Shown in pieces: positions 2,027-63,509 of a stretch of DNA of 64,000 nucleotides; within the stretch, counting starts at the first letter, position 1, and each line of letters starts with the position of its first letter. Source of the stretch: Escherichia phage Sa157lw. The stretch lies in sequence record OK322699.1. One strand, 5' to 3'. Made by a program: the position numbers and the translations under genes. The notes beneath the pieces are model-generated. The model was not told where the DNA came from. It saw only the letters and a list, made by a program, of their open reading frames with translations, and made no database searches.

Positions 2027-3349
2027 ATGACTAAGAAACTTGTAACCGAAGAAATGCGCAAACAGTGGCTGCCAGTTCTCCAAAAAGAATCTGAAGCCAT
2101 CCAACCTCTGTCTGCCGAAAACGTAACCATCCGTCTGATGCAAAACCAGGCCGAGTGGAACGCTAAAAACCTGGGCGAATCCGACGCTCCTGGTTCTGTA
2201 AACAGCACTGTCGGTAAATGGCAGCCAGTCCTGATCGACATGGCAAAACGTCTAGCGCCGATCAACATCGCAATGGACTTCTTCGGCGTTCAGCCGCTGT
2301 CTGGTCCTGATGGTCAGATCTTCGCACTGCGTGCTCGCCAAGGTGTTGGTGACGGTTCTACTACCGCTCAGGCGCGTAAAGAACTGTTCATGAACGAAGC
2401 CGATTCCGGCTACTCTGGTGATGGCACTGTACAGGCTGGTGACCCGTCAGGCTTCAGTCAGGCTGAGATCGAAGGTTCCGGCTCTGTCGTGACCACTATC
2501 GGTAAAGGTATGCCGTCAACCGACGCGGAACTGCTGGGTACTACCACCAATCCGTGGGCGCGTGTTGGTATTACCGTTCAGAAAGCGACCGTTACTGCCA
2601 AGTCTCGCGGCCTGTATGCTGATTACAGCCATGAACTGCGTCAGGATATGATGGCAATTCACGGCGAAGACGTGGACAATATCCTGTCTGACGTGATGGT
2701 AACTGAAATTCAGGCGGAAATGAACCGTGAATTCATCCGCACCATGAACTTCAGTGCTGTTCGTTTCAAAAAATTCGGCACCAACGGTGTTGTTGATATC
2801 GCACAGGACATCTCCGGTCGTTGGGCGCTGGAAAAATGGAAATTCCTGACTTTCATGCTGGAAGTCGAAGCGAATGGTATCGGCGTTGACACCCGTCGTG
2901 GTAAAGGCAACCGTGTTCTGTGTTCTCCGAACGTGGCGTCTGCTCTGGCGATGTCCGGCATGCTGGACTATGCTCCGGTTCTGCAGGAAAACACCAAACT
3001 GGCTGTTGACCCGACTGGTCAGACCTTCGCGGGTGTTCTGTCCAACGGCATGCGCGTCTATGTTGACCCATATGCTGTAGCAGAATATATCACCCTGGCG
3101 TATAAAGGCGCGACCGCGCTGGATGCTGGTATCTTCTTCGCACCGTATGTGCCGCTGGAAATGTACCGTACTCAGGGTGAAACCACCTTCGCTCCGCGTA
3201 TGGCGTTCAAAACCCGTTACGGCATCTGTGCTAACCCGTTCGTTCAGATTCCGGCTAACCAAGACCCGCAGGTTTACGTGACTGCTGACGGTATTGCTCA
3301 AGACAGCAACCCATACTTCCGTAAAGGTCTCATCAAATCTCTGTTCTAA
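2027..3349 (+). CDS. 23: major capsid protein gp23
   Basis: 440 aa; motifs FGVQPLSGPDGQIFALRA, YVDPYA, FKTRYGI, C-terminal YFRKG match T4 gp23 pattern. Confidence 0.9.
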   Translation: MTKKLVTEEMRKQWLPVLQKESEAIQPLSAENVTIRLMQNQAEWNAKNLGESDAPGSVNSTVGKWQPVLIDMAKRLAPINIAMDFFGVQPLSGPDGQIFALRARQGVGDGSTTAQARKELFMNEADSGYSGDGTVQAGDPSGFSQAEIEGSGSVVTTIGKGMPSTDAELLGTTTNPWARVGITVQKATVTAKSRGLYADYSHELRQDMMAIHGEDVDNILSDVMVTEIQAEMNREFIRTMNFSAVRFKKFGTNGVVDIAQDISGRWALEKWKFLTFMLEVEANGIGVDTRRGKGNRVLCSPNVASALAMSGMLDYAPVLQENTKLAVDPTGQTFAGVLSNGMRVYVDPYAVAEYITLAYKGATALDAGIFFAPYVPLEMYRTQGETTFAPRMAFKTRYGICANPFVQIPANQDPQVYVTADGIAQDSNPYFRKGLIKSLF

Positions 3350-3367
3350 TCAACAGGTTTTGATAAA

Positions 3368-3397
3368 CAAACCCCGCCATGTGCGGGGTTTTTCTTT
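3368..3397 (+). terminator. rho-independent terminator after gp23 (AAACCCCGC catgt GCGGGGTTT + TTTCTTT)
   Basis: perfect 9-bp GC-rich stem and T-run. Confidence 0.8.
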
Positions 3398-3443
3398 ATA
3401 GGGATTCACTATAAGACCGCTAATAGTTTTCAATAAGTGGGCA

Positions 3444-3680
3444 ATGAACGATCATTACCTAACTTTCACAACTGGAACGCTACTCATGGCTAAAGAAACT
3501 CTGACTAAAGAAAACTCTAACTTCGCAGAATGGCATGCAGAATTAGAGCGTGTCGCTCGTTCTCAACATGGCTCTGCCGCCGATGCTATGGCGTGGCATG
3601 AAGATTATGAGTCTGGCAAAACCCCGCGTCAGGCTTGGGAAGATGAATGGGGGTGGAATGATGCAGACTCTAATTCGTAA
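3444..3680 (+). CDS. hypothetical small protein
   Basis: 78 aa ORF; true start may be internal (MAKETL). Confidence 0.3.
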   Translation: MNDHYLTFTTGTLLMAKETLTKENSNFAEWHAELERVARSQHGSAADAMAWHEDYESGKTPRQAWEDEWGWNDADSNS

Positions 3681-3891
3681 GATATATCTGGATAAGAACT
3701 ATTTGGAATCCAAAATCGAAGTTTTCTCGGCTCAAAAAATAATTGAAGACGGTGAAACGAGATATTATCTGAAACCTGACCTTTATCTTCCAGGAAGTAG
3801 TTTGAATCGCGATATAATTCAGTCGGACGGTATTACTGTTCGTTGGGAAATGGCGTCACAGGAAGACAACTGTCATAGCATAACACTTTGA
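3658..3891 (+). CDS. hypothetical small protein
   Basis: ORF 3550..3891 trimmed to internal ATG overlapping stop of upstream ORF, GGGGGTGG RBS. Confidence 0.3.
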   Translation: MMQTLIRKIYLDKNYLESKIEVFSAQKIIEDGETRYYLKPDLYLPGSSLNRDIIQSDGITVRWEMASQEDNCHSITL

Positions 3892-3906
3892 AGAGAGATC
3901 TATATT

Positions 3907-4347
3907 ATGTCAAAAGAAAAATACATATTCATCAGCCCCGCTACGAAGGAGTTCTTCATCTCCGACGTGAAAGATCGTGTTGAGAAGTTCCGCTACATGC
4001 GCAGCTATGGTCTGGCATCCGGTGATATTGATTATCAGTCACTGGACAATGATCGCCAAGATCTGATCGACGACGGTTGGCGTTTAGTTCCGTCCCCTCA
4101 GTACATTCATATCACGTTGTACTATATGAAGGACAGCGGGAAGTTCTATTCCGAAGGTGAACTCGTACTCAATCGAGGAGAAGCAGAAGCCGAACCTGCC
4201 AAAACCTGGATGTTGGCGATGGATCAGATCCGTGAATTGCTGGACTCCGGTAATCTGCCTGGCCTGATCAGGGGTTCAAAATTCGACGTGTTCGTTACTG
4301 GCCAGGGTCATCCTGGTGGATACCCACATCTGTTCCGTATTAACTGA
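3907..4347 (+). CDS. hypothetical protein
   Basis: 146 aa ORF; start carries conserved GAGAGATCTATATTATG element. Confidence 0.4.
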   Translation: MSKEKYIFISPATKEFFISDVKDRVEKFRYMRSYGLASGDIDYQSLDNDRQDLIDDGWRLVPSPQYIHITLYYMKDSGKFYSEGELVLNRGEAEAEPAKTWMLAMDQIRELLDSGNLPGLIRGSKFDVFVTGQGHPGGYPHLFRIN

Positions 4348-4730: not shown

Positions 4731-4963
4731 AAATCAAAAAGATAGGCGCAAGCCCATTGACGGGAACAATCTTCCAGGGTACTTTGAACACCAAGACCAG
4801 TATGTGGGTCGGTGAGAAGACTGATGTGACTAACGACTGTGTAGCGGCTACGGCTGAACACATGCGTCACATCAAGAAAGACTACTGCTTCCCTACTAAA
4901 GACGGCAAGTTCCTGGTGCTGAGCGCTGAGGTTCACGACACCCTTCCTGATCGCTTCAAATAA
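4727..4963 (+). CDS. hypothetical small protein
   Basis: ORF 4709..4963 trimmed to MKIKK start with GGGAG RBS; ATGA overlap with upstream stop. Confidence 0.35.
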   Translation: MKIKKIGASPLTGTIFQGTLNTKTSMWVGEKTDVTNDCVAATAEHMRHIKKDYCFPTKDGKFLVLSAEVHDTLPDRFK

Positions 4964-4989
4964 ATTTAAAATTTATTCAATAAACGGGG

Positions 4990-5017
4990 TTTACTTCTTC
5001 AATAAACCCCGTATACT
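4990..5017 (+). promoter_or_regulatory. early sigma70-type promoter (-35 TTTACT, 16-bp spacer containing TTCAATAA, -10 TATACT)
   Basis: sequence read directly; member of repeated promoter family. Confidence 0.55.
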
Positions 5018-5066
5018 TCATTCCATAAGCAGCACAACACTGACTCTGAAATGAAGGAACTACACC

Positions 5067-5504
5067 ATGACCACAGCAAAAGTTACCATCTACGCTTTCG
5101 ACGCTTTCTCTAAATTTGACGCATTCGTCTCCTCCGCATTTGGTATCAAAGAAGTTGAAGCAGAGAAAACTTTCTGTGGTGGACTCGGCAAGTTTGCCAA
5201 CCTGAGTTTATCCCTGACAGAGTTCATGAAATCTCTTGAAGGTCACTTTGACGCCGAAACCATTCGCACTTCCTTACTCAAGAAAGACGGCACCCCTCGC
5301 AAACTGTCTGGCAAGACTAGAATTTACGATGCTGACGGCTTTACTGTGTCTGTGCATTTTACTGAAGAACCTGTGTACGAACTTTTCAGCGGGTCTGAGG
5401 ACCTCACTCACTATGTGGTCAGGAAAGGCGATTCCCGCCCTGTGTTCGAATCTGGCGACATCCTCGCCGCTATCAAAGAACTTGCGCGTCTGAATAGCCT
5501 CTAA
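5067..5504 (+). CDS. hypothetical early protein
   Basis: 145 aa; downstream of promoter and conserved leader GAAGGAACTACACCATG. Confidence 0.45.
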   Translation: MTTAKVTIYAFDAFSKFDAFVSSAFGIKEVEAEKTFCGGLGKFANLSLSLTEFMKSLEGHFDAETIRTSLLKKDGTPRKLSGKTRIYDADGFTVSVHFTEEPVYELFSGSEDLTHYVVRKGDSRPVFESGDILAAIKELARLNSL

Positions 5505-8495: not shown

Positions 8496-8533
8496 GTTAT
8501 AATACAGAGAGTTGAAACAGCAGGAAATAAATC

Positions 8534-8989
8534 ATGAGTGAAACAAAATTTGAAACAATGAAGACCGAAGATATAATCGCGGAATTAGATCCTCTTATTT
8601 CGGTGAATCCTGAAGACATGAATTTAGACCAAATATCATTGAAAATTGGTCGTTCATGGATGGCTGTCCAGCGCCATTACATTCGTGAAGGGCGTTATCT
8701 AGAATTTTTGACAGGAAAATTCCGTCAAATCGATCTTTATTTACGTCGGTATTATGCAGGGGAATTACCACCCAATATTTATGTCGAACGTCCCCTGAAA
8801 GTTCGCCCCCTGAAATCTGATATAGACGTTTGGGTAAAGGCTGATGACGATTACATTGAGTTATCGAGCATGTTGCAAGAACAAAAAGCCAAAGTAAAAT
8901 TAATCGAAAGTAGTTTAGAACGTTTGAATAAACTCGGCTATGAAGTGAAAAATGCGATTGATTGGCGAAAATACTTGGACGGCATGTGA
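8534..8989 (+). CDS. hypothetical protein
   Basis: 151 aa ORF with AGGAAATAAATCATG start context. Confidence 0.45.
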   Translation: MSETKFETMKTEDIIAELDPLISVNPEDMNLDQISLKIGRSWMAVQRHYIREGRYLEFLTGKFRQIDLYLRRYYAGELPPNIYVERPLKVRPLKSDIDVWVKADDDYIELSSMLQEQKAKVKLIESSLERLNKLGYEVKNAIDWRKYLDGM

Positions 8990-11984: not shown

Positions 11985-12653
11985 ATGCAAGAGATCACTC
12001 TCTCTGAACGCACTTTACAACTGCTGGCCAACTTTGAAACCATTTGCCCTTCTATCGTTCTGGCACCTGGTAAAAAGCTGCGCACTGTTAACGACTCCAG
12101 CACCGTCATCGCTATCGCTGACATCGACGAAGACTTCCCGTTTGAATTCCCTATTTTGGACCTGACCAAACTTCTGGCCATTCAGCGTCTGCCTAGTTTC
12201 AAAGGCGGTAAAATCGAAATGTCGGAAGATCATATTTTACTGAAAGGTGAAAACTCGCAGCTGCAATTCTGGCGCTCAGCAAAAGAATTGACTGTCGTTC
12301 CTGCCGACAGCATTGATCTCCCGTCCGTTGAATTCGAAGCGACGGTCACTCCTGAAAAAATGAAAGAGCTGACCCGCGCCTGTTCTACTCTGGGACACAA
12401 AACTGTTCGTCTGGTTGCCAGCGGCGGTAAAACCCGTCTGGTCGGTACGACTACGACTATCGATAATTCCAACGATTACACCGTTGAATTGGGTGAAACT
12501 GCTCTGGCTGATTTCGCTATGCCTGTCGACGTTGTTAACCTGAAAATGATCGAGGGCAACTATGTGATCCGCGCCTGTGCTGAAATGCAGCTTGTTAACT
12601 TCCAGTCGGCAGATGGTACCATCAACTACTACGTTGGCATGCAGCTGGATTAA
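11985..12653 (+). CDS. 45: sliding clamp gp45
   Basis: 222 aa; N-terminal LLANFETICPSI pattern like T4 gp45; followed by gp44/gp62. Confidence 0.85.
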   Translation: MQEITLSERTLQLLANFETICPSIVLAPGKKLRTVNDSSTVIAIADIDEDFPFEFPILDLTKLLAIQRLPSFKGGKIEMSEDHILLKGENSQLQFWRSAKELTVVPADSIDLPSVEFEATVTPEKMKELTRACSTLGHKTVRLVASGGKTRLVGTTTTIDNSNDYTVELGETALADFAMPVDVVNLKMIEGNYVIRACAEMQLVNFQSADGTINYYVGMQLD

Positions 12654-12733: not shown

Positions 12734-13723
12734 ATGTCCAACATTACTATCGTTACAGACCAATACGCGTGGGAAAACAAATATCGTCCTGATAATTTAG
12801 ATGAGATCGTTCTCCCCTCAGACGTCCGTGCCAAGATCCATGGTTATGTTACCTCTGGCAACGGAAACATCCCCTCTATGCTGTTCTACTCCCCTCAGCC
12901 TGGTACGGGTAAAACTACTTCTGCTCTGGCCGTGTGCAATGAAATCGGTTGTGTGAAACCTCTGATGATCAACGCATCGCTTGACAACAGCATTGATGTG
13001 ATTCGCGATCGTGTCATTCAATATGCTACTGGCGTCAGCGTTTTCGGTGGTCGGAAAGTCGTCATCCTCGACGAAGTTGAGCGTCTTTCTATGGCGGCTC
13101 AGGAATCATTGAAAGGTATCGTGGAAAAGGTTTCCAAGAACTGCTCGTTTATCCTGACCACCAACGCCAAACAGCGTGTCAATGAGCCTCTGCGTTCTCG
13201 TTGCCGTGAAATTGATTTCATCTGGTCCGAAAAAGAAGCCGACGAAGTTAAACTTCAATTTATGCGTCGTTGTGCCACTATCCTGACAGAAGAAGGCATT
13301 CCATACGAAGCTGGTGTTATTGCGTCGATTGTCAAGTCGTATTTCCCCGACAACCGTAAGATTATGGGCACCCTTCAGGATAATGCCACCACGTTTGGTA
13401 AAATCGATGAACGTGCTTTGGCTCAGGTGAAAGCGGGTGAATTCCAGGCGTTGGTCGATTTCTTAAAGGCCAATGATTGGGCTGGTATGAAGCAATGGGT
13501 GACTGACAACCAAAACTACATCACAGAGGACTTCTACTCTCGTTTCTTCCATTTCTGTGTTCCGCAGAACAAAGAGAAGAATCCTTTGATCCAAAACGAA
13601 TCTATCCCAGATTTGGTCTGTGTTTGTGGTCAGTCACAGATTGAACATCGTTCAGTTGGAGACGTCTGGTTACACGGCGTTTACTTCCTGACCAACGTCA
13701 TGCTCAACATCAAGTGGAAGTGA
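12734..13723 (+). CDS. 44: clamp loader large subunit gp44 (AAA+)
   Basis: 329 aa; Walker A SPQPGTGKTT, DEVERL box, SRC motif. Confidence 0.9.
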   Translation: MSNITIVTDQYAWENKYRPDNLDEIVLPSDVRAKIHGYVTSGNGNIPSMLFYSPQPGTGKTTSALAVCNEIGCVKPLMINASLDNSIDVIRDRVIQYATGVSVFGGRKVVILDEVERLSMAAQESLKGIVEKVSKNCSFILTTNAKQRVNEPLRSRCREIDFIWSEKEADEVKLQFMRRCATILTEEGIPYEAGVIASIVKSYFPDNRKIMGTLQDNATTFGKIDERALAQVKAGEFQALVDFLKANDWAGMKQWVTDNQNYITEDFYSRFFHFCVPQNKEKNPLIQNESIPDLVCVCGQSQIEHRSVGDVWLHGVYFLTNVMLNIKWK

Positions 13724-14150: not shown

Positions 14151-14248
14151 TTCAAATTATTGTTAAAGGGGTACGAGTCATGGCGCGTAATACGCTGGAC
14201 ATCTTGAAACTTTCAGCTGTTAACGATGAGGCCAGCATCGTTGATTGT

Positions 14249-14644
14249 ATGGTTGAAGTTCAATTGAACCAAGATAAACCAGGAATTTTTCTGGGTATCA
14301 AGGAAACGCTGAGCCGCATCGGGGTGAACACTCGTCAAGAGCCGAATACCCTGTACCAAACATGTCATATTCTGCATAAATTTGGCAGATATCACATCGT
14401 GCACTTCAAGCATCTTTTCATGCTGGATGGGCATTACAACGGCTTTACGCGTGAAGATGTCCTGCGTATGAATCGGATTATTCGGCTTTTGGAGCAGTGG
14501 AATATGGTTAAAATACTGCATCCGGAACAGATTACCGAAGTTGCTGATATGTCTCGAATCAAAGTTGTAAAACATGACCAAGTTTCTGATTGGAAACTGG
14601 TTCCAAAATATACCATCCGCCCGACTCGGGCGAAAAGCGAATAA
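14249..14644 (+). CDS. regA: translational repressor RegA
   Basis: ORF 14180..14644 trimmed to internal ATG; IKETLSRIGV..LYQTCHILHKFGRYHIVHFKHLF..WKLVPKYTI matches T4 RegA. Confidence 0.85.
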   Translation: MVEVQLNQDKPGIFLGIKETLSRIGVNTRQEPNTLYQTCHILHKFGRYHIVHFKHLFMLDGHYNGFTREDVLRMNRIIRLLEQWNMVKILHPEQITEVADMSRIKVVKHDQVSDWKLVPKYTIRPTRAKSE

Positions 14645-16825: not shown

Positions 16826-16864
16826 TTTACTTCATTCTTCAATAACCCCCTTTCAACGTATATT
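16826..16864 (+). promoter_or_regulatory. promoter-like element of the TTTACTTC-TTCAATAA family (spacing atypical)
   Basis: TTTACTTCattcTTCAATAA .. TATATT; conserved leader AGGAAGACTATACCATG downstream. Confidence 0.35.
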
Positions 16865-16929
16865 GACCTCACTTTAACGACGCGCCCATTTAGGGCGCTC
16901 AATTTGAACTGAAACAGGAAGACTATACC

Positions 16930-18951
16930 ATGGCAGAATTCAAACCTTTCGCAACGGCTGTTAATGATAACGTGCTGGCGATGTCCGCAACTGGTCTGTT
17001 TATGACCAACGTTGATAAAGATGCTCTGTGGGATTTGTATTTGGCATCCTTCCCAGCTGGTACCAACCCGATGTACCGCGAACGCACTGAACACGACTGC
17101 ACCTGCTGTAAACAATTCATCCGTAATATCGGCGGCGTCGTGACTATCGATGCTGACCTGAACGTTATCTCGATTTGGGACAACATTGAGCTGGGTAACG
17201 AATACGACGTGGTGGCTGCGGCGCTGTCGACCTTCGTTAAACAACACGCAATCGTCGACGTGTATTTCAACGATTCTGCTAAAGTCGGCCTGTCTCATAA
17301 CCACGAATCTGGTGAAGACGGCAAAATCCGCACGTATAACCATTTCCACACCGAACTGCTCGGCAGCTATGTCCTGCGTTCTGATGCTATTGCATCTAAA
17401 AAAGGTGAAATCCGACAGGCTATCGAATTATTTGAACGCGGTCTGCGTGAAATTACTCTGGAATCAGCAGAAATCGTTCTGGAATTGATTGATCAGAATT
17501 CTTTGTATCGCGGCGCTGAACATAAAGCTGCGGTGATGGGCTTCGTAGTAGCCAAGACGGCATATGAAGAAATCCCAGAATCTAACCGTTCTCTGTGGGC
17601 ATGGCGCACTGGTTATCGTTCAAACAATCATGTTCCACATGGCATTCGCAACACCGTTATCGGTACTCTGTTGACTGATATCAGTGAAGGCGTGGAACTG
17701 GAAAAGGCCGTTAAGTCGTTTGAAACCAAAGTTGCCCCAGCGAACTACAAACGCCCGACGGCTCTGGTCTCCAAGTCCATGATCGAAAACGCTCAGAAAG
17801 AAGTGATTGCTCTCGGTCTGGAAGATTCGCTGGCGCGTCGTTATGCAGTTTATGACGACCTGACGATCAATAACGTTCTGTTTGCAGACCTGGCTGCTCA
17901 AAAAGCGATGGATCCATTCGCTCAACTGGCCGCCGAAGTGAAAACGCCGACCAAGTCGCTGGATAAAGTTGAAGAGATTGGCATTGACGACTTCCTGAGC
18001 AATATCCTGCCGAAAGCGCATTCAATGGAAGTGCTGGTTGAAAACTCGCATACTGGCAACCTTATGTCTCTGGTCGCTCCGGCTATTGCAGGTGCTCCTA
18101 ACCTTTTCAAATGGGGCAACGGTTTCTCATGGTCATACAACGGCGAAGTGGCCGACTCCATCAAAGAGCGTGTGAAAGCGGCTGGCGGTAAAGTCGACGG
18201 GTTCCTCCGTGTATCCCTGGCTTGGCACAACAACGATGACCTCGATCTGCATATGTTCTTTAACAATATGGAACATGTGTACTTCCGCGATCGTCGTTCA
18301 ATGACTGGTGCTCATCTCGATATCGACATGAACGGTATGGACGGCATCGACCCGAACCGCTCTCCGGTAGAAAACATCATCTTCACTGATGAAAGAAAGC
18401 TGCGTGACGGTGAATATCGTTTTGAGATTCACAACTACAACCAACGTGAAAAGATCGACGAAGGGTTTGAAATTGAAGTTGAATACAAAGGCGCTACGCA
18501 ACGTTTTAGCCACAATGGGTTAAAAGACCAGGGGCGCATCACTGCCGTCGTTCTGACTGTTAAAGACAAACAAGTCGTTAGCATCAAGTCTGAGCTGGCG
18601 AATGTTGATAAATCCAAAGAAATTTGGGGCATTAAGACAGCGACCTTCCAGAAGGTACAGCTGGTCCTGAACTCACCAAACCATTGGGATGGTGAACAAA
18701 CTGGCAACAAGCACGTCTTCTTCATCTTGGAAGGTTGTGCGAATCCTGAAGGTACTCGTGGTTTCTACAATGAATATCTGAAGCCGGAACTGGATAAACA
18801 TCGTAAGGTTTTTGAAATGTTGGGTAGTAAAATGAAAGTACAACCCAACGAAAACCAACTGTCTGGTTTGGGGTTCTCGACAACGCAACGCAACCATGTG
18901 TTCGTCAAAGTGTCCGGCGCGTTTAACCGTACTGTAAAAGTCATTTTCTAA
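16930..18951 (+). CDS. hypothetical large early protein (673 aa)
   Basis: long ORF with conserved leader; no confident domain match. Confidence 0.5.
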   Translation: MAEFKPFATAVNDNVLAMSATGLFMTNVDKDALWDLYLASFPAGTNPMYRERTEHDCTCCKQFIRNIGGVVTIDADLNVISIWDNIELGNEYDVVAAALSTFVKQHAIVDVYFNDSAKVGLSHNHESGEDGKIRTYNHFHTELLGSYVLRSDAIASKKGEIRQAIELFERGLREITLESAEIVLELIDQNSLYRGAEHKAAVMGFVVAKTAYEEIPESNRSLWAWRTGYRSNNHVPHGIRNTVIGTLLTDISEGVELEKAVKSFETKVAPANYKRPTALVSKSMIENAQKEVIALGLEDSLARRYAVYDDLTINNVLFADLAAQKAMDPFAQLAAEVKTPTKSLDKVEEIGIDDFLSNILPKAHSMEVLVENSHTGNLMSLVAPAIAGAPNLFKWGNGFSWSYNGEVADSIKERVKAAGGKVDGFLRVSLAWHNNDDLDLHMFFNNMEHVYFRDRRSMTGAHLDIDMNGMDGIDPNRSPVENIIFTDERKLRDGEYRFEIHNYNQREKIDEGFEIEVEYKGATQRFSHNGLKDQGRITAVVLTVKDKQVVSIKSELANVDKSKEIWGIKTATFQKVQLVLNSPNHWDGEQTGNKHVFFILEGCANPEGTRGFYNEYLKPELDKHRKVFEMLGSKMKVQPNENQLSGLGFSTTQRNHVFVKVSGAFNRTVKVIF

Positions 18952-24223: not shown

Positions 24224-24250
24224 GGCGGGGTATGATTACCCCGCCTATTT
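24224..24250 (+). terminator. stem-loop GGCGGGG tatgatta CCCCGCC + TATTT
   Basis: inverted repeat. Confidence 0.5.
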
Positions 24251-24294
24251 GAAATTGCAGGAACTTATATCATGATCTCTGTCGAGGGTATAAT

Positions 24295-24582
24295 ATGACA
24301 AAGGAACAAGAACTCGCTTTGTTCTCTATGGTTCGCAGTAATGTTAAATTGAGTTTTAGACAAGTGGACTCCATTATTGATCTTATGAAAATTAAGAATT
24401 CCATAGATAACGATCATTTGCGCACCGCTCTTTTGGGATTGTTGGAATTCGTTTTGCGCGGATCTGATCTTGGACCAGTGAATGATATTGACGACCTGAC
24501 CAAATTGTTAAACACTGGCGGTGATGGTTTCGATACCGCTCGTATTCTGATTAACTGTGGTCCTAACAAAGAAGAGGTATGA
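24295..24582 (+). CDS. hypothetical small protein
   Basis: 95 aa ORF. Confidence 0.35.
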   Translation: MTKEQELALFSMVRSNVKLSFRQVDSIIDLMKIKNSIDNDHLRTALLGLLEFVLRGSDLGPVNDIDDLTKLLNTGGDGFDTARILINCGPNKEEV

Positions 24583-38464: not shown

Positions 38465-38498
38465 AGGGCACTAAATATCAAGTGCCCTTTATCTTTTA
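38465..38498 (+). terminator. stem-loop GGGCACT aaatatcaa GTGCCC + TTTATCTTTT
   Basis: inverted repeat. Confidence 0.55.
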
Positions 38499-38555
38499 AC
38501 CCTGTCAGGAGGCTCAATCGAGCTGCAAGTCGACAAACACATAAGGAACGCCATC

Positions 38556-39173
38556 ATGACGATGACAACGTTGAAGGCCATGGCCTTGTCCGTGACCTTT
38601 ACCATTGCCAGCGGGAGTGTGCACGCTTCCCAAAGTACCACCCAATGTGATTACGAATTTTCTGATCAGCAACTTTCAACTATGGCCACTGCCTATCACA
38701 TAGGCAAACAGCAAGACCTTGGTTTCACCCTAGCCGCGATATCATGGAGGGAAAGCCGCGCCGGAGAAGATGTGGTATCCATGCGGAATAACCTGAAATC
38801 GGCTAATATGGGGGCATTCCAAAATCGCGTCCAAACCGTTGGGAAACGGGAGGGATGCAAAACACAGAAGTGTTACGCCAACGTGGCGATTAAATTGCTG
38901 GTCAATCAAGAGTACGCAGCCAATGCAGCCCTTGATGAAATGAATTTCTGGCTTGGATATCATAACCAAAACATCCGCAAATCGCTCTCCTCTTACAATG
39001 CCGGTTTCAGTCGTAACCAAAAATCCAATTCATACGCTGCTGATGTCGTGAAGAAGGCTAAATATCTTCAACGATGTGTGTCTTTCAAAGGCATGGCAAT
39101 AAACCCGAAGGTCGACCCAGGAGTGATCGCCATGAATAAGCGCACGATTGAGAAACTCAAGAGGACCCGATAA
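38556..39173 (+). CDS. secreted protein with lytic transglycosylase (SLT)-like motif
   Basis: signal peptide with VHA-SQ cleavage-like site; AISWRESRAGEDVVS..ANMGAFQN resembles the ES..GLMQ motif of SLT domains. Confidence 0.4.
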   Translation: MTMTTLKAMALSVTFTIASGSVHASQSTTQCDYEFSDQQLSTMATAYHIGKQQDLGFTLAAISWRESRAGEDVVSMRNNLKSANMGAFQNRVQTVGKREGCKTQKCYANVAIKLLVNQEYAANAALDEMNFWLGYHNQNIRKSLSSYNAGFSRNQKSNSYAADVVKKAKYLQRCVSFKGMAINPKVDPGVIAMNKRTIEKLKRTR

Positions 39174-39811: not shown

Positions 39812-39840
39812 AATAATTCAATAAAAGGGGCAAACGCCCC

Positions 39841-39868
39841 TTTACTTCTTCAATAACTACCGTATAAT
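39841..39868 (+). promoter_or_regulatory. early sigma70-type promoter (-35 TTTACT, 16-bp spacer with TTCAATAA, -10 TATAAT)
   Basis: best match to consensus in the family; preceded by hairpin AGGGGC aaac GCCCCT. Confidence 0.6.
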
Positions 39869-39916
39869 TCTAAACATAAGCAGTACGACACCAACTTGAA
39901 AAGCAGGAACTATATC

Positions 39917-40285
39917 ATGACCAAAACTGAATTGAACAACATTCTGAACGTTGCTGGGTACAAGAATATTCGTCGTGGGAATAACAAAATCGCGCGTGAC
40001 CGTAGCAACAAAATCATCAAGGGGTTTCCCCTGTGTAAAACTGGTCCTCTCGATATCAGCAACCCGTCCAAGCGCTTGTTTAAAGACTTATTGCGTGAAC
40101 TCGGCACTAAAGGCCTGGTGCTAGATAAAAAGGATGACCTGGTTGACTTTGGCATCGCGGTTATGAAGATTGCCAAATTCAAAATAACTCTGTGCGTACA
40201 GACCATTCAGACATATGACTACTCTGAAGGCCGTGACCCGAATTACGAAACAAAATATGTCAACGTAAGGATTGAAGGGTTATAA
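39917..40285 (+). CDS. hypothetical early protein
   Basis: ORF 39896..40285 trimmed to ATG after conserved leader CAGGAACTATATCATG. Confidence 0.45.
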   Translation: MTKTELNNILNVAGYKNIRRGNNKIARDRSNKIIKGFPLCKTGPLDISNPSKRLFKDLLRELGTKGLVLDKKDDLVDFGIAVMKIAKFKITLCVQTIQTYDYSEGRDPNYETKYVNVRIEGL

Positions 40286-40366
40286 TACGAATATGCGGGG
40301 GCTTGATGCCCCTTTCTTTTCGCTAATTAAGGAAAACCGCACCGATTTATTATCAGGAGAATTACA

Positions 40367-45805: not shown

Positions 45806-45834
45806 TTTACTCTTCAATAATCATGCACTATTAT
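45806..45834 (+). promoter_or_regulatory. early sigma70-type promoter (-35 TTTACT, TTCAATAA spacer, -10 TATTAT)
   Basis: promoter family member. Confidence 0.55.
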
Positions 45835-45911
45835 AGTTCACATAGGGCGGTACACAACACCCCGCCGAATGAAAAGTGAAACGACCCAACTACATTATGA
45901 GGAATTACGTC

Positions 45912-46400
45912 ATGGCTACTACCAAAACTCTGATCACCAACGGCACCATCTCTTTTGAACTGAACACCGAAGTTGCAAAAGTTGAAATGTTCCGCATCGC
46001 TCAGGCAGCTGGCTTCACTGGTGGCAAAACTTCCTTCATGAATCTGCTGAACGGCAAAGTGAAAGCAACCAACGGTTTCACCCTGGTAGAGCAGGTTGTC
46101 GTAGACAAAGCCGTGGTTGCCAAAACTGCTGACAAGGTTGGCATGCTGAAAGACCTGGGCCATGACATCCACGTTGTCGAAGCGAATACCGAAACTTACG
46201 GCACCATCGTAGTCGGTAAAGGTCGCATTCAGCTGAACCCGCTGAACAACGGAACCTTCTCCGTGATGGTATTCCCGAAAAAGGGTTATGACAACAGTGA
46301 TATCGTGAAAGCCGCTGGCGGTGAAGCGAAATCCCAGTATGTCAAAATGGGTAAACTGAGCGCCGACGCAGTAGAAACTCTGGTGAACAAACTGGCTTAA
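45912..46400 (+). CDS. hypothetical early protein
   Basis: ORF 45876..46400 trimmed to MATTKTL behind GAGGA RBS. Confidence 0.5.
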   Translation: MATTKTLITNGTISFELNTEVAKVEMFRIAQAAGFTGGKTSFMNLLNGKVKATNGFTLVEQVVVDKAVVAKTADKVGMLKDLGHDIHVVEANTETYGTIVVGKGRIQLNPLNNGTFSVMVFPKKGYDNSDIVKAAGGEAKSQYVKMGKLSADAVETLVNKLA

Positions 46401-52223: not shown

Positions 52224-52249
52224 TATTTCAAAGCCCCTGATCCAGGGGC

Positions 52250-52278
52250 TTTACTTTTGAAACCTTCCCGCCTATACT
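52250..52278 (+). promoter_or_regulatory. early sigma70-type promoter (-35 TTTACT, 17-bp spacer, -10 TATACT) overlapping terminator hairpin AGCCCCTG atc CAGGGGCT
   Basis: promoter family member. Confidence 0.5.
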
Positions 52279-52329
52279 TCCCAATAATTCATTGGCAAAC
52301 GCCACAAATTGAACAGCAGGAACTATATC

Positions 52330-52563
52330 ATGACCAATTCTGAAATATATCATGCTTCTATGCATTATCATGACCTACGCGCCCGTCCAGGACACGCCAA
52401 ACAAAAAGCATTCTGGGTGGCAGAACTCAGATTACGCCGTGCCGTCGTTAACCACCAAATAATCATGAATCGGAAAAACGACAAATCACCGTTGTTGGCA
52501 GATTCTTATCTTGAACTCCGCACAGCCTATGAACAAGCCAAACAGCACGTAATAGGAGCATAA
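52330..52563 (+). CDS. hypothetical early protein
   Basis: ORF 52309..52563 trimmed to ATG after conserved leader CAGGAACTATATCATG. Confidence 0.4.
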   Translation: MTNSEIYHASMHYHDLRARPGHAKQKAFWVAELRLRRAVVNHQIIMNRKNDKSPLLADSYLELRTAYEQAKQHVIGA

Positions 52564-52564
52564 T

Positions 52565-53026
52565 ATGTCCAACAAATTACTCACCAACCCCCGCCACAAC
52601 TTTGGTTATATCCAATTACCAGAAGTGATAGACACGTTGTTTGCTGAAGACAAGGAAGAAGTTTGTTGGGCACCAGCGACTCTTATTGAACGCGAAATTT
52701 TCAAATCTGAAGTAGACGTGATGTTCCGCATCGGTTCATCCGGAGACCTTCATTATTTGGGGAAAGTGACCGAGTTAAAGACCTGCCATGCTCAAAGATT
52801 TTTGCGCATTGACACCACTCAATGTGACGACTTTTCATTCAGCATTCTGCGTGAATATGTTCAGGTCAACCGTCCTGTGTATCAACACCGCCCTTATTTG
52901 ACGTCGATGCATATAGACAATTATATTTCCGACATTCATTTACGTGCATCAACTATCCATGAAGAAGATTCTGGTATCGCGGTTGATACAGTACTCAATA
53001 TGATCGTCATTACTTTGGTGCCGTGA
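52565..53026 (+). CDS. hypothetical protein
   Basis: 153 aa ORF. Confidence 0.4.
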   Translation: MSNKLLTNPRHNFGYIQLPEVIDTLFAEDKEEVCWAPATLIEREIFKSEVDVMFRIGSSGDLHYLGKVTELKTCHAQRFLRIDTTQCDDFSFSILREYVQVNRPVYQHRPYLTSMHIDNYISDIHLRASTIHEEDSGIAVDTVLNMIVITLVP

Positions 53027-63403: not shown

Positions 63404-63482
63404 TATTCACGTCAGTCCGCGCTATACCAGCGTTCCGTTGTCTAACACAGAAGTGTTAACCAACTTTTCAATAAAAAGTGGT

Positions 63483-63509
63483 TTACATCTTCTAAAAAGG
63501 CAGTATATT
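63483..63509 (+). promoter_or_regulatory. early sigma70-type promoter (-35 TTTACA, -10 TATATT) preceded by TTCAATAA
   Basis: promoter family member. Confidence 0.45.

Follow-up and report, generated by a model that had tools for sequence, protein, structure and literature searches.

Several genes of Escherichia phage Sa157lw start in nearly the same way, which raises the question of what their common start region does. The stretch studied here, referred to as the window, consists of 64,000 nucleotides (nt) of one strand of sequence record OK322699.1. In the original prediction, almost the same sequence was seen upstream of the ATGs at 5067, 16930, 39917 and 52330, ahead of unrelated early genes, and was proposed to be a shared signal for translation initiation or RNA processing, for example a target of RegA or RegB, or a standardised strong initiation region. 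The comparisons described below indicate that the motif is the 3' end of a cassette of about 110 nt, in which a terminator hairpin, a promoter of early type, a leader and a ribosome site can be recognised. This cassette is probably a composite regulatory element of Ackermannviridae, serving as an expression module and, at the same time, as a patch of homology for gene exchange.

Salmonella phages of the genus Kuttervirus (Vi01-like, Ackermannviridae), among them AR2819, Marshall, Vi01 and SeF3a, share about 99% identity with the window. AR2819 and SeF3a were used as close relatives for comparison, and Klebsiella phage Magnus (Taipeivirus) and Dickeya phage phiD3 (Limestonevirus, a different subfamily) as distant ones. 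Further loci were obtained from IMG/VR through exact-pattern scans. The scans of IMG/VR with 16-17-mers gave many chance matches in unrelated contigs, and the matches kept are those with the full leader-ATG pattern. A 16-mer with four mismatches returned mostly noise, as did a first promoter pattern, TTCAATAA-N12-TATA, in which the spacing was wrong.

All four ATGs are present where the original prediction had placed them, and the motif AGGAACTAYAYCATG is exact at three of them (5055-5069, 39905-39919 and 52318-52332). At 16930 the likeness is approximate only: this site, AGGAAGACTATACCATG, has one or two extra bases and is a weak member of the set (nhmmer E 0.087). When up to two mismatches are allowed, AGGAACTAYAYCATG has seven matches in the window, all on the + strand and each ending in a start codon, compared with 0.26 expected by chance; none of 100 shuffled sequences reached seven. 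The top direct-repeat family of the window is a 40-nt block around the same start (5042, 8509, 39892 and 52305), with 90% identity between the copies at 39892 and 52305. Upstream of this block, 5067 and 39917 match over a further 56 nt at 79%. Two copies had been overlooked, at 8534 and at 24272, the latter being placed at 24249-24277 by a profile search (E 0.0025). The extent of the likeness had been overlooked as well, since it covers about 100 nt upstream and up to 15 nt of the coding sequence (ATGACCAAAACTGAA compared with ATGACCAATTCTGAA).

Such a motif could simply reflect the generic ribosome-site consensus, or a chance resemblance, and its AGGA at -12 to -9 does occupy the usual Shine-Dalgarno (SD) position of the genes of this phage. 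An alignment of gene starts had been proposed beforehand as the way to recognise this case. With 82 annotated starts mapped onto the window and anchored on the start codon, the logo carries information only at the GG at -11/-10 (about 0.55 bit each) and at the A at -3, and the similarity does not dissolve into it. The five most similar of the 3321 pairs of start regions all fall within the set of 5067, 8534, 39917 and 52330, with 16-23 of 25 positions identical and a mode of 7 for all pairs. These top-ranked pairs stand far above the mode, which argues that the motif is not a generic ribosome site. Moreover, the similarity spans about 110 nt and is conserved across subfamilies. The generic explanation was rejected on the basis of the start-region logo and the pairwise ranking, and its probability is close to nil.

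The cassette begins with an A/T-rich tract that carries the stop codon of the upstream gene, the 25 nt preceding the promoter being A/T-rich. A GC-rich hairpin (-13.6 to -16.3 kcal/mol, z-scores of -3.5 to -4.6) encloses the -35 box in the 5067 copy and overlaps it in the 39917 and 52330 copies (Table 1). The putative promoter, TTTACT-N16/17-TATA(C/A)T, is followed by TTC; in addition to these three copies, the promoter scan located a related one at 45806-45834. Then comes a CA-rich leader of about 42 nt, for which no structure is predicted. The 3' end is made of TTGAAA, 3-4 nt, the SD sequence AGGAAC, a TAYAYY spacer and the ATG, often with ACC behind it, and this 3' end can be written as TTGAAA..AGGAACTAYAYY-ATG. 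Shuffled sequences fold at least as well as the leaders with their first codons (z +0.2 to +1.5), from which an open ribosome site is predicted. A structured RNA element in the leader was ruled out on the same ground and because an Rfam scan of the whole window matched no family. In the 157-kb genome of SeF3a, TTTAC-N17/18-TAnAMT is found at just five intergenic sites, all on one strand; four of the five carry the leader, with the ATG 48-51 nt past the -10 box.

Comparison with distant relatives shows how closely the cassette is conserved. Between Magnus and the window, cassettes are 82-93% identical against a median of 75%, and the 5067 cassette belongs to the top 1.4% of the 100-nt windows in this comparison. 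In phiD3, the 110-nt cassette is 97% identical, as compared with 69.5% for the flanking genes and 86% for the major capsid gene. When the 110-nt cassette at 4960-5069 was used as query, blastn gave 774 places in 281 phage records, from phages of Salmonella, Klebsiella, Escherichia, Dickeya, Serratia, Shigella and similar hosts. With a word size of 11, all matches to this query were enterobacterial Ackermannviridae-type records, and T4-type (Straboviridae) phages were absent from them. In a distant contig where the UvsY protein is just 52% identical, TTTACTTCTTCAATAA...CTTGAAAAGCAGGAACTATACGATG is still kept. When 46 distinct cassettes are aligned, little or no variation is seen in TTTACTT, TATA, TTC, TGAA and AGGAA.TA.A..ATG. 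Loop sequences of the hairpins are free to vary and the stem is kept, one stem showing a compensatory change (GGGAC/GTCCC). Between the SD sequence and the ATG, variation is limited almost solely to C/T changes at -4, -2 and -1.

The genes behind the cassette do not form a family. Every leader-ATG pattern in the compared sequences was counted as an instance, and the encoded proteins were grouped by all-against-all BLASTP (E 1e-4). The 61 distinct instances precede 19 unrelated protein families: four behind cassettes of the 5067 type, five behind the 39917 type, two behind the 52330 type and at least three, plus a mini-open reading frame (mini-ORF), behind the 24272 type. That the proteins encoded behind the copies in the window are unrelated, as first proposed, is borne out by the Pfam scan, which gave no match for any of them (the cassette ORFs at 5067, 39917 and 52330 included), and by the lack of any alignment between same-slot pairs. 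The genes behind orthologous 5067 cassettes do not align and are unrelated, and the 122-aa protein of 39917 does not align with the product of the Magnus gene that occupies the corresponding position, also behind an orthologous cassette. The relative of this 122-aa protein in Magnus is gp170 (30% identity, E 5e-12), which follows a cassette located elsewhere in the genome, immediately past the capsid gene. In the window itself, the gene content between the capsid gene and 5885 differs between genera. The idea of a standardised strong initiation region holds in part, the SD-AUG segment being conserved, predicted to be unstructured and placed ahead of 19 families; what could not be retained is the view of the motif as a free-standing signal for translation or RNA processing.

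Breaks of homology between phages coincide with the ATG of the cassette. The homology with SeF3a extends as far as 52332, the last base of the ATG, and is regained at 52574. SeF3a and four IMG/VR genomes lack the 77-aa gene, and in them this ATG is the start of the gene that comes next. At 24275 the homology ends both with AR2819 and with Magnus. Other ends are found at 5064 and 39931 with Magnus and at 5074 with phiD3. Among 33 right-hand ends of alignments of at least 200 nt with SeF3a, AR2819 and Magnus, six are located between -5 and +20 relative to the start of a + strand gene, and five of these six are at cassette ATGs. When six gene starts were drawn at random from 75, this result was not matched in any of 20,000 draws. 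To the right of slot 39917, homology is regained behind the variable gene, at a terminator hairpin (Table 1) in which the stem differs between phages and which is followed by a conserved TTTCGCTAATTA.

One indel junction is itself chimeric. Around a cassette of the 5067 type, Magnus and the IMG/VR locus L143 (Klebsiella-type phages) are 98.5-99% identical, and Magnus has 304 bp that are absent from L143. This insert, an 83-aa ORF and a terminator, is found between two leader copies, CTCTGAAATGAAGGAACTACATTATG on the left and CTTTGAAACGAAGGAACTATATCATG on the right. The single leader of L143, CTCTGAAATGAAGGAACTATATCATG, corresponds to the left copy up to GAAGGAACTA and to the right copy beyond it, which is what homologous exchange between the two copies of the leader would produce. 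In two-gene arrays (loci L220 and L142), a promoter-less leader directly follows the stop codon of the first gene. Finally, in slot 39917, AGGAAC is preceded by AAGC, ACGA, ATGA or TAGC, depending on the phage. This suggests that the upstream and SD-proximal halves of the cassette combine as a mosaic, a reading based on few data, in which mosaicism is not separable from concerted evolution within genomes.

Taken as a composite module, the cassette may work as follows. Its hairpin would end upstream transcription, its promoter would be read by the host RNA polymerase, presumably early in infection, and its open ribosome site would be read by host ribosomes. The cassette would in this way form an insulated, high-expression unit for any small accessory gene located behind it. 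As it is repeated within and between genomes, it would also supply the homology needed for gene gain, loss, replacement and movement, and would thus act as a patch at which genes can be inserted, deleted, replaced or moved. The AGGAACTA core, or the ATG itself, would often be the place of the crossover, and it is assumed that the exchanges are made by the general recombination system of the phage. At the DNA level, being a junction of gene exchange appears to be the most distinctive documented property of the cassette.

Several observations weigh against this proposal. Behind the copies at 8534 and 16930 stand conserved genes, and these are not exchanged. The copy number is low: BLAST gives about three places per genome (774 in 281 records), and the window has about six to eight when diverged copies are included. 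A generic promoter scan of the window was not enriched over shuffled sequences (10 found, 11.4 expected), so that the promoter assignment is based on repetition and conservation rather than on score. It should also be noted that promoter, terminator and early status are all read from the sequence, and that the label of early genes, used in the original prediction, derives from the sigma-70-type look of the promoter. Breakpoints at the ATG could arise by any replacement mechanism combined with selection preserving the regulatory region. Lastly, 97% identity over 110 nt exceeds the usual demand of a promoter and a ribosome site. The reason why the whole 110 nt are held at up to 97% across subfamilies is the one aspect that the proposal leaves unexplained, and an additional sequence-specific role, for instance as a protein operator, or a very recent lateral spread may be involved.

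Could the cassette be an expression module and nothing else? An optimal promoter and ribosome site would then be kept by selection while the genes behind it turn over by illegitimate events, and the leader would have no role in recombination. The unstructured leader, the well-placed AGGA and A at -3 and the high conservation of the cassette fit this idea, and so do the right-hand junctions, which share no repeat but just a terminator with a variable stem. It is, however, difficult to reconcile with the indel between Magnus and L143, located between direct leader repeats and leaving a chimeric leader as the footprint of homologous exchange, nor does it account for the leader-only copies between genes in arrays, for the mosaic of cassette halves in slot 39917, or for the one gene family that has moved along with the cassette to another genome position. 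Such a restricted role is judged unlikely. Alternatively, the cassette may go beyond the role of a passive patch and may have a dedicated trans-acting partner, either RegA or another RNA-binding protein for which it is an operator, or an enzyme that targets exchange to it. The reason for considering such a partner is the near-invariance of the cassette, 97% over 110 nt against about 70% for coding DNA; it is nevertheless held to be quite unlikely. If it existed, a RegA homologue or other RNA-binding protein would switch off the whole set of exchangeable accessory genes, or a phage enzyme directing exchange to the leader would represent an integron-like gene-cassette system in a virulent phage.

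As regards RegA in particular, binding of the phage homologue to the SD-AUG segment would shut off translation after the early period, which is compatible with the cassette being a composite module. A RegA homologue is encoded at 14180-14644 (PF01818, E 6.2e-35) and is also found in Magnus. Like T4 RegA sites, which overlap or abut the AUG and are devoid of structure (PMC3014915), the motif is at the AUG and is predicted to be unstructured, and its conservation goes beyond the need of a plain ribosome site. However, three of the eight positions upstream of the AUG match the T4 consensus obtained by in vitro selection (SELEX), AAAAUUGUUAUGUAA, a consensus that is that of T4 and may not be that of the present RegA. 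Moreover, orthologues of classical targets are without the motif (sliding clamp at 11985, clamp loader at 12734 and 13728, regA at 14180), and the conserved promoter, the hairpin and the breakpoints would find no explanation. On balance, an operator of this kind seems improbable. A RegB-type endoribonuclease cutting within the SD sequence of these early mRNAs, as also suggested originally, is highly improbable. RegB cuts GGAG/U within GG*AGRAYARAA, and T4 RegB alone recognises GGA weakly (PMC3014915). The motif does offer a GGA in an unstructured SD region, and a 'RegB' gene is annotated in AR2819. But the motif has GGAA, not GGAG/U, and GGAACTATATC agrees with the T4 consensus at 4 of 11 positions. 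The ORF at 38556-39173, which corresponds to the 'RegB site-specific RNA endonuclease' of AR2819, matches the SLT lytic transglycosylase family of Pfam (E 2.7e-4, just under the cut-off). Its N-terminus is hydrophobic, and Pfam gives no RegB match for it; the AR2819 annotation is probably wrong. The annotation of SeF3a lists no RegB-like product. The RegB site was rejected owing to the consensus mismatch and to the SLT match of the annotated gene.

The most conserved 100-nt stretch in the comparison with Magnus (99% identity, for a median of 75%) is 38485-38584, which comprises the 71 nt upstream of ORF 38556-39173 and its first 29 nt; no stable RNA fold is predicted for it (z +0.7).

Table 1. 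Cassettes, related copies and adjoining genes in the window; promoters, hairpins, terminators and leaders are predictions
Feature	Position	Strand	Remarks
Promoter TTTACT-16-TATACT	4990..5017	+	From the promoter scan
Hairpin ACGGGGTTTA / TAAACCCCGT	4984..5012	+	Encloses -35; -14 kcal/mol, z -4.6
Leader CATAAGCAGCACAACACTGACTCTGAAATGAAGGAACTACACC plus ATG	5018..5069	+	Motif at 5055-5069; unstructured, z +1.05
145-aa ORF	5067..5504	+	Behind cassette; four unrelated families fill this slot in other phages
Leader-like copy: TATAAT (8498-8503), TTGAAACAGCAGGAAATAAATC-ATG	8496..8536	+	Before uvsY-like gene
Diverged relative: TATATT, leader hairpin (16879-16900), TTTGAACTGAAACAGGAAGACTATACC-ATG	16859..16932	+	Before conserved 673-aa ORF; orthologous copy in Magnus
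Promoter-less copy: hairpin (24224-24245), then TATTTGAAATTGCAGGAACTTATATC-ATG	24224..24274	+	E 0.0025; hairpin z -2.7
8-codon mini-ORF MISVEGII from cassette ATG	24272..24298	+	Its TGA overlaps the ATG (ATGA) of 95-aa ORF 24295-24582
Hairpin AAGGGGC-aaac-GCCCCTT	39824..39843	+	-13.6 kcal/mol, z -4.3; T-run overlaps -35
Promoter TTTACT-16-TATAAT	39841..39868	+	10/12 in scan
Leader plus ATG	39869..39919	+	Motif at 39905-39919; least structured, z +1.5, 194/200 shuffles fold at least as well
122-aa ORF in swappable slot	39917..40285	+	Homologous to Magnus gp170
Terminator closing the 39917 module	40297..40313	+	Right-hand junction; homology with other genera resumes (40298)
Related promoter TTTACT-17-TATTAT, leader hairpin, decayed motif GAGGAATTACGTC-ATG	45806..45914	+	From pattern and promoter scans
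GC-rich terminator-like hairpin AAAGCCCCTG-atc-CAGGGGCTTT	52230..52252	+	-16.3 kcal/mol, z -3.5, 0/200 shuffles as stable; 3' arm overlaps -35
Sigma-70-type promoter TTTACT-17-TATACT	52250..52278	+	9/12 in scan
Leader with TTGAAC (52309-52314), AGGAAC (52318-52323), spacer TATATC	52279..52329	+	Fold z +0.22; interval of the original prediction, 52296-52332
77-aa ORF (MTNSEIY...)	52330..52563	+	Behind cassette; no Pfam match
Related promoter TTTACA-16-TATATT	63482..63509	+	Leader retains mere remnants of the motif

Among the individual copies, the one ahead of the uvsY-like gene (8534) was set aside as a member of the cassette family, as its orthologues read differently (TTGAAAAGGTGGGAATATTTTATG in Magnus, TTGACAAGCTGGGATATTTTATG in phiD3). 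It may be convergent, or may be a diverging orthologous leader that merely resembles the cassette. Within the first codons of the same gene, at 8550-8577, a near-consensus promoter-like sequence is found (TTGAAA-16-TATAAT, 11/12). The mini-ORF at 24272-24298 looks like a vestigial start left after gene replacement, and it may couple translation with that of the adjacent 95-aa ORF. The ORF at 45912, behind the decayed motif, has no Pfam match. At 52330, the promoter, leader and start of the cassette are covered by gp145 of AR2819, a 41-aa ORF on the minus strand (52228-52353 in the window); this ORF call is probably spurious, because the conservation there is regulatory and not codon-like.

Other observations concern hairpins and gene replacement outside these copies. 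Between 38000 and 53000 of the window, terminator-like hairpins are about twice as numerous as in shuffled sequences (30 compared with 13.3 ± 3.7), and many of them are bidirectional and located between small genes. At 3398-4344, directly after the terminator of the capsid gene (3369-3391), the window shows a replacement relative to AR2819 (2446-3840); at this site AR2819 has a homing endonuclease gene, and Magnus has a full cassette with a homologue of the 39917 gene. On the minus strand of SeF3a, near 113197 and 116321, in the rII gene region, a second intergenic pattern is observed, TTCTTCAATAAAGGGG...TATTAT...CCCC, in which a -10-like box is inside the hairpin loop. This may be another class of cassette that shares the TTCAATAA block.

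A composite cassette of this kind would provide the Vi01-like phages with a conserved candidate class of promoters having a defined leader, and would add a second family of large virulent phages to the T4-type ones, in which modular shuffling is known. Biocontrol of Salmonella, E. coli O157, Klebsiella and Dickeya makes use of many members of this second family. The cassette marks the exact slots of accessory-gene turnover and may thus serve as a marker for strain-specific accessory genes, such as candidate host-takeover or anti-defence genes. For phage engineering, it would represent a natural insulated landing pad combined with an expression module.

How does the cassette relate to known systems? 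T4 early promoters have a -35 box of the type (G)TTTAC rather than TTGACA, with an A/T-rich tract upstream. The cassette is similar in both respects, the host sigma-70 holoenzyme being its presumed reader. A single leader sequence common to the early genes of T4 is not known. The 39917 unit, with a promoter, one ORF and a terminator inserted between conserved genes, also resembles the morons of lambdoid and other phages. Morons are not known to move via conserved flanking regulatory sequences, whereas here the regulatory sequence itself is the repeated junction. With the RegA and RegB sites of T4, the cassette has in common an unstructured SD-AUG region of the kind found in prereplicative mRNAs; it differs from them in that neither consensus is matched and that no RegB gene was found. 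Vi01-like phages were reported to lack Alt, ModA, MotA and AsiA (PMC3184105). The cassette is not described in the early genome papers on these phages: early promoters were considered not identifiable by informatics in CBA120 (PMC3184105), eight tentative promoters were derived from the TTGACA/TATAAT consensus in AG3 (PMC3121705), and searches with the T4 consensus gave a handful of promoters in LIMEstone1 (PMC3296691). A literature search of incomplete coverage, and hence a weak negative, gave no prior description of the cassette in Ackermannviridae.

The closest known system is that of the promoter-early stem-loop (PeSL) cassettes of T4-type phages, described in RB49/phi1, T4/PST and KVP40/nt-1 (Arbiol et al., 2010, PMC2839356; Comeau et al., 2014, PMC4122927). 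PeSLs are conserved elements of about 100 bp with an AT-rich region, a strong sigma-70-like promoter, a variably placed stem-loop, and an SD sequence and ATG at the 3' end; they cluster ahead of genes without known function in hyperplastic regions, and indels between RB49 and phi1 are bounded by them (PMC2839356; PMC4122927). Gene shuffling of this kind, crossovers between the -10 box and the ATG included, was shown experimentally in RB49 and phi1 (PMC2839356). The present cassette differs from PeSLs in several ways. It belongs to Ackermannviridae and has no detectable sequence similarity to the genomes of T4-type phages. Its copies are few, about three places per genome by BLAST or six to eight in the window with diverged ones, as compared with about 50 in RB49, and 5067 and 39917 are nevertheless alike over about 110 nt. 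Its conservation is tighter, up to 97% between subfamilies with the whole leader included, and its SD-proximal 25 nt are also found alone, without promoter, between the genes of small arrays. In addition, PeSLs are characterised by mini-circles excised during infection and by promoter and terminator activity in reporters, whereas the present cassette is known from its sequence. The likeness is otherwise extensive. Both are intergenic composites of about 100 bp in which the upstream stop codon is found in an AT-rich region, with a sigma-70-like promoter, a stem-loop of the GGGG...CCCC type upstream of, over or between the promoter boxes, and an SD sequence and ATG at the 3' end (here AGGAAC-TAYAYY-ATG). 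Both precede small genes of unknown function in variable regions, and both bound indels or replacements between close relatives, with crossovers between the -10 box and the ATG and a chimeric element at the junction. Apart from the number of copies and from sequence relatedness, the architectural and comparative features of PeSLs that sequence comparison can address are thus all seen in the Ackermannviridae cassette.

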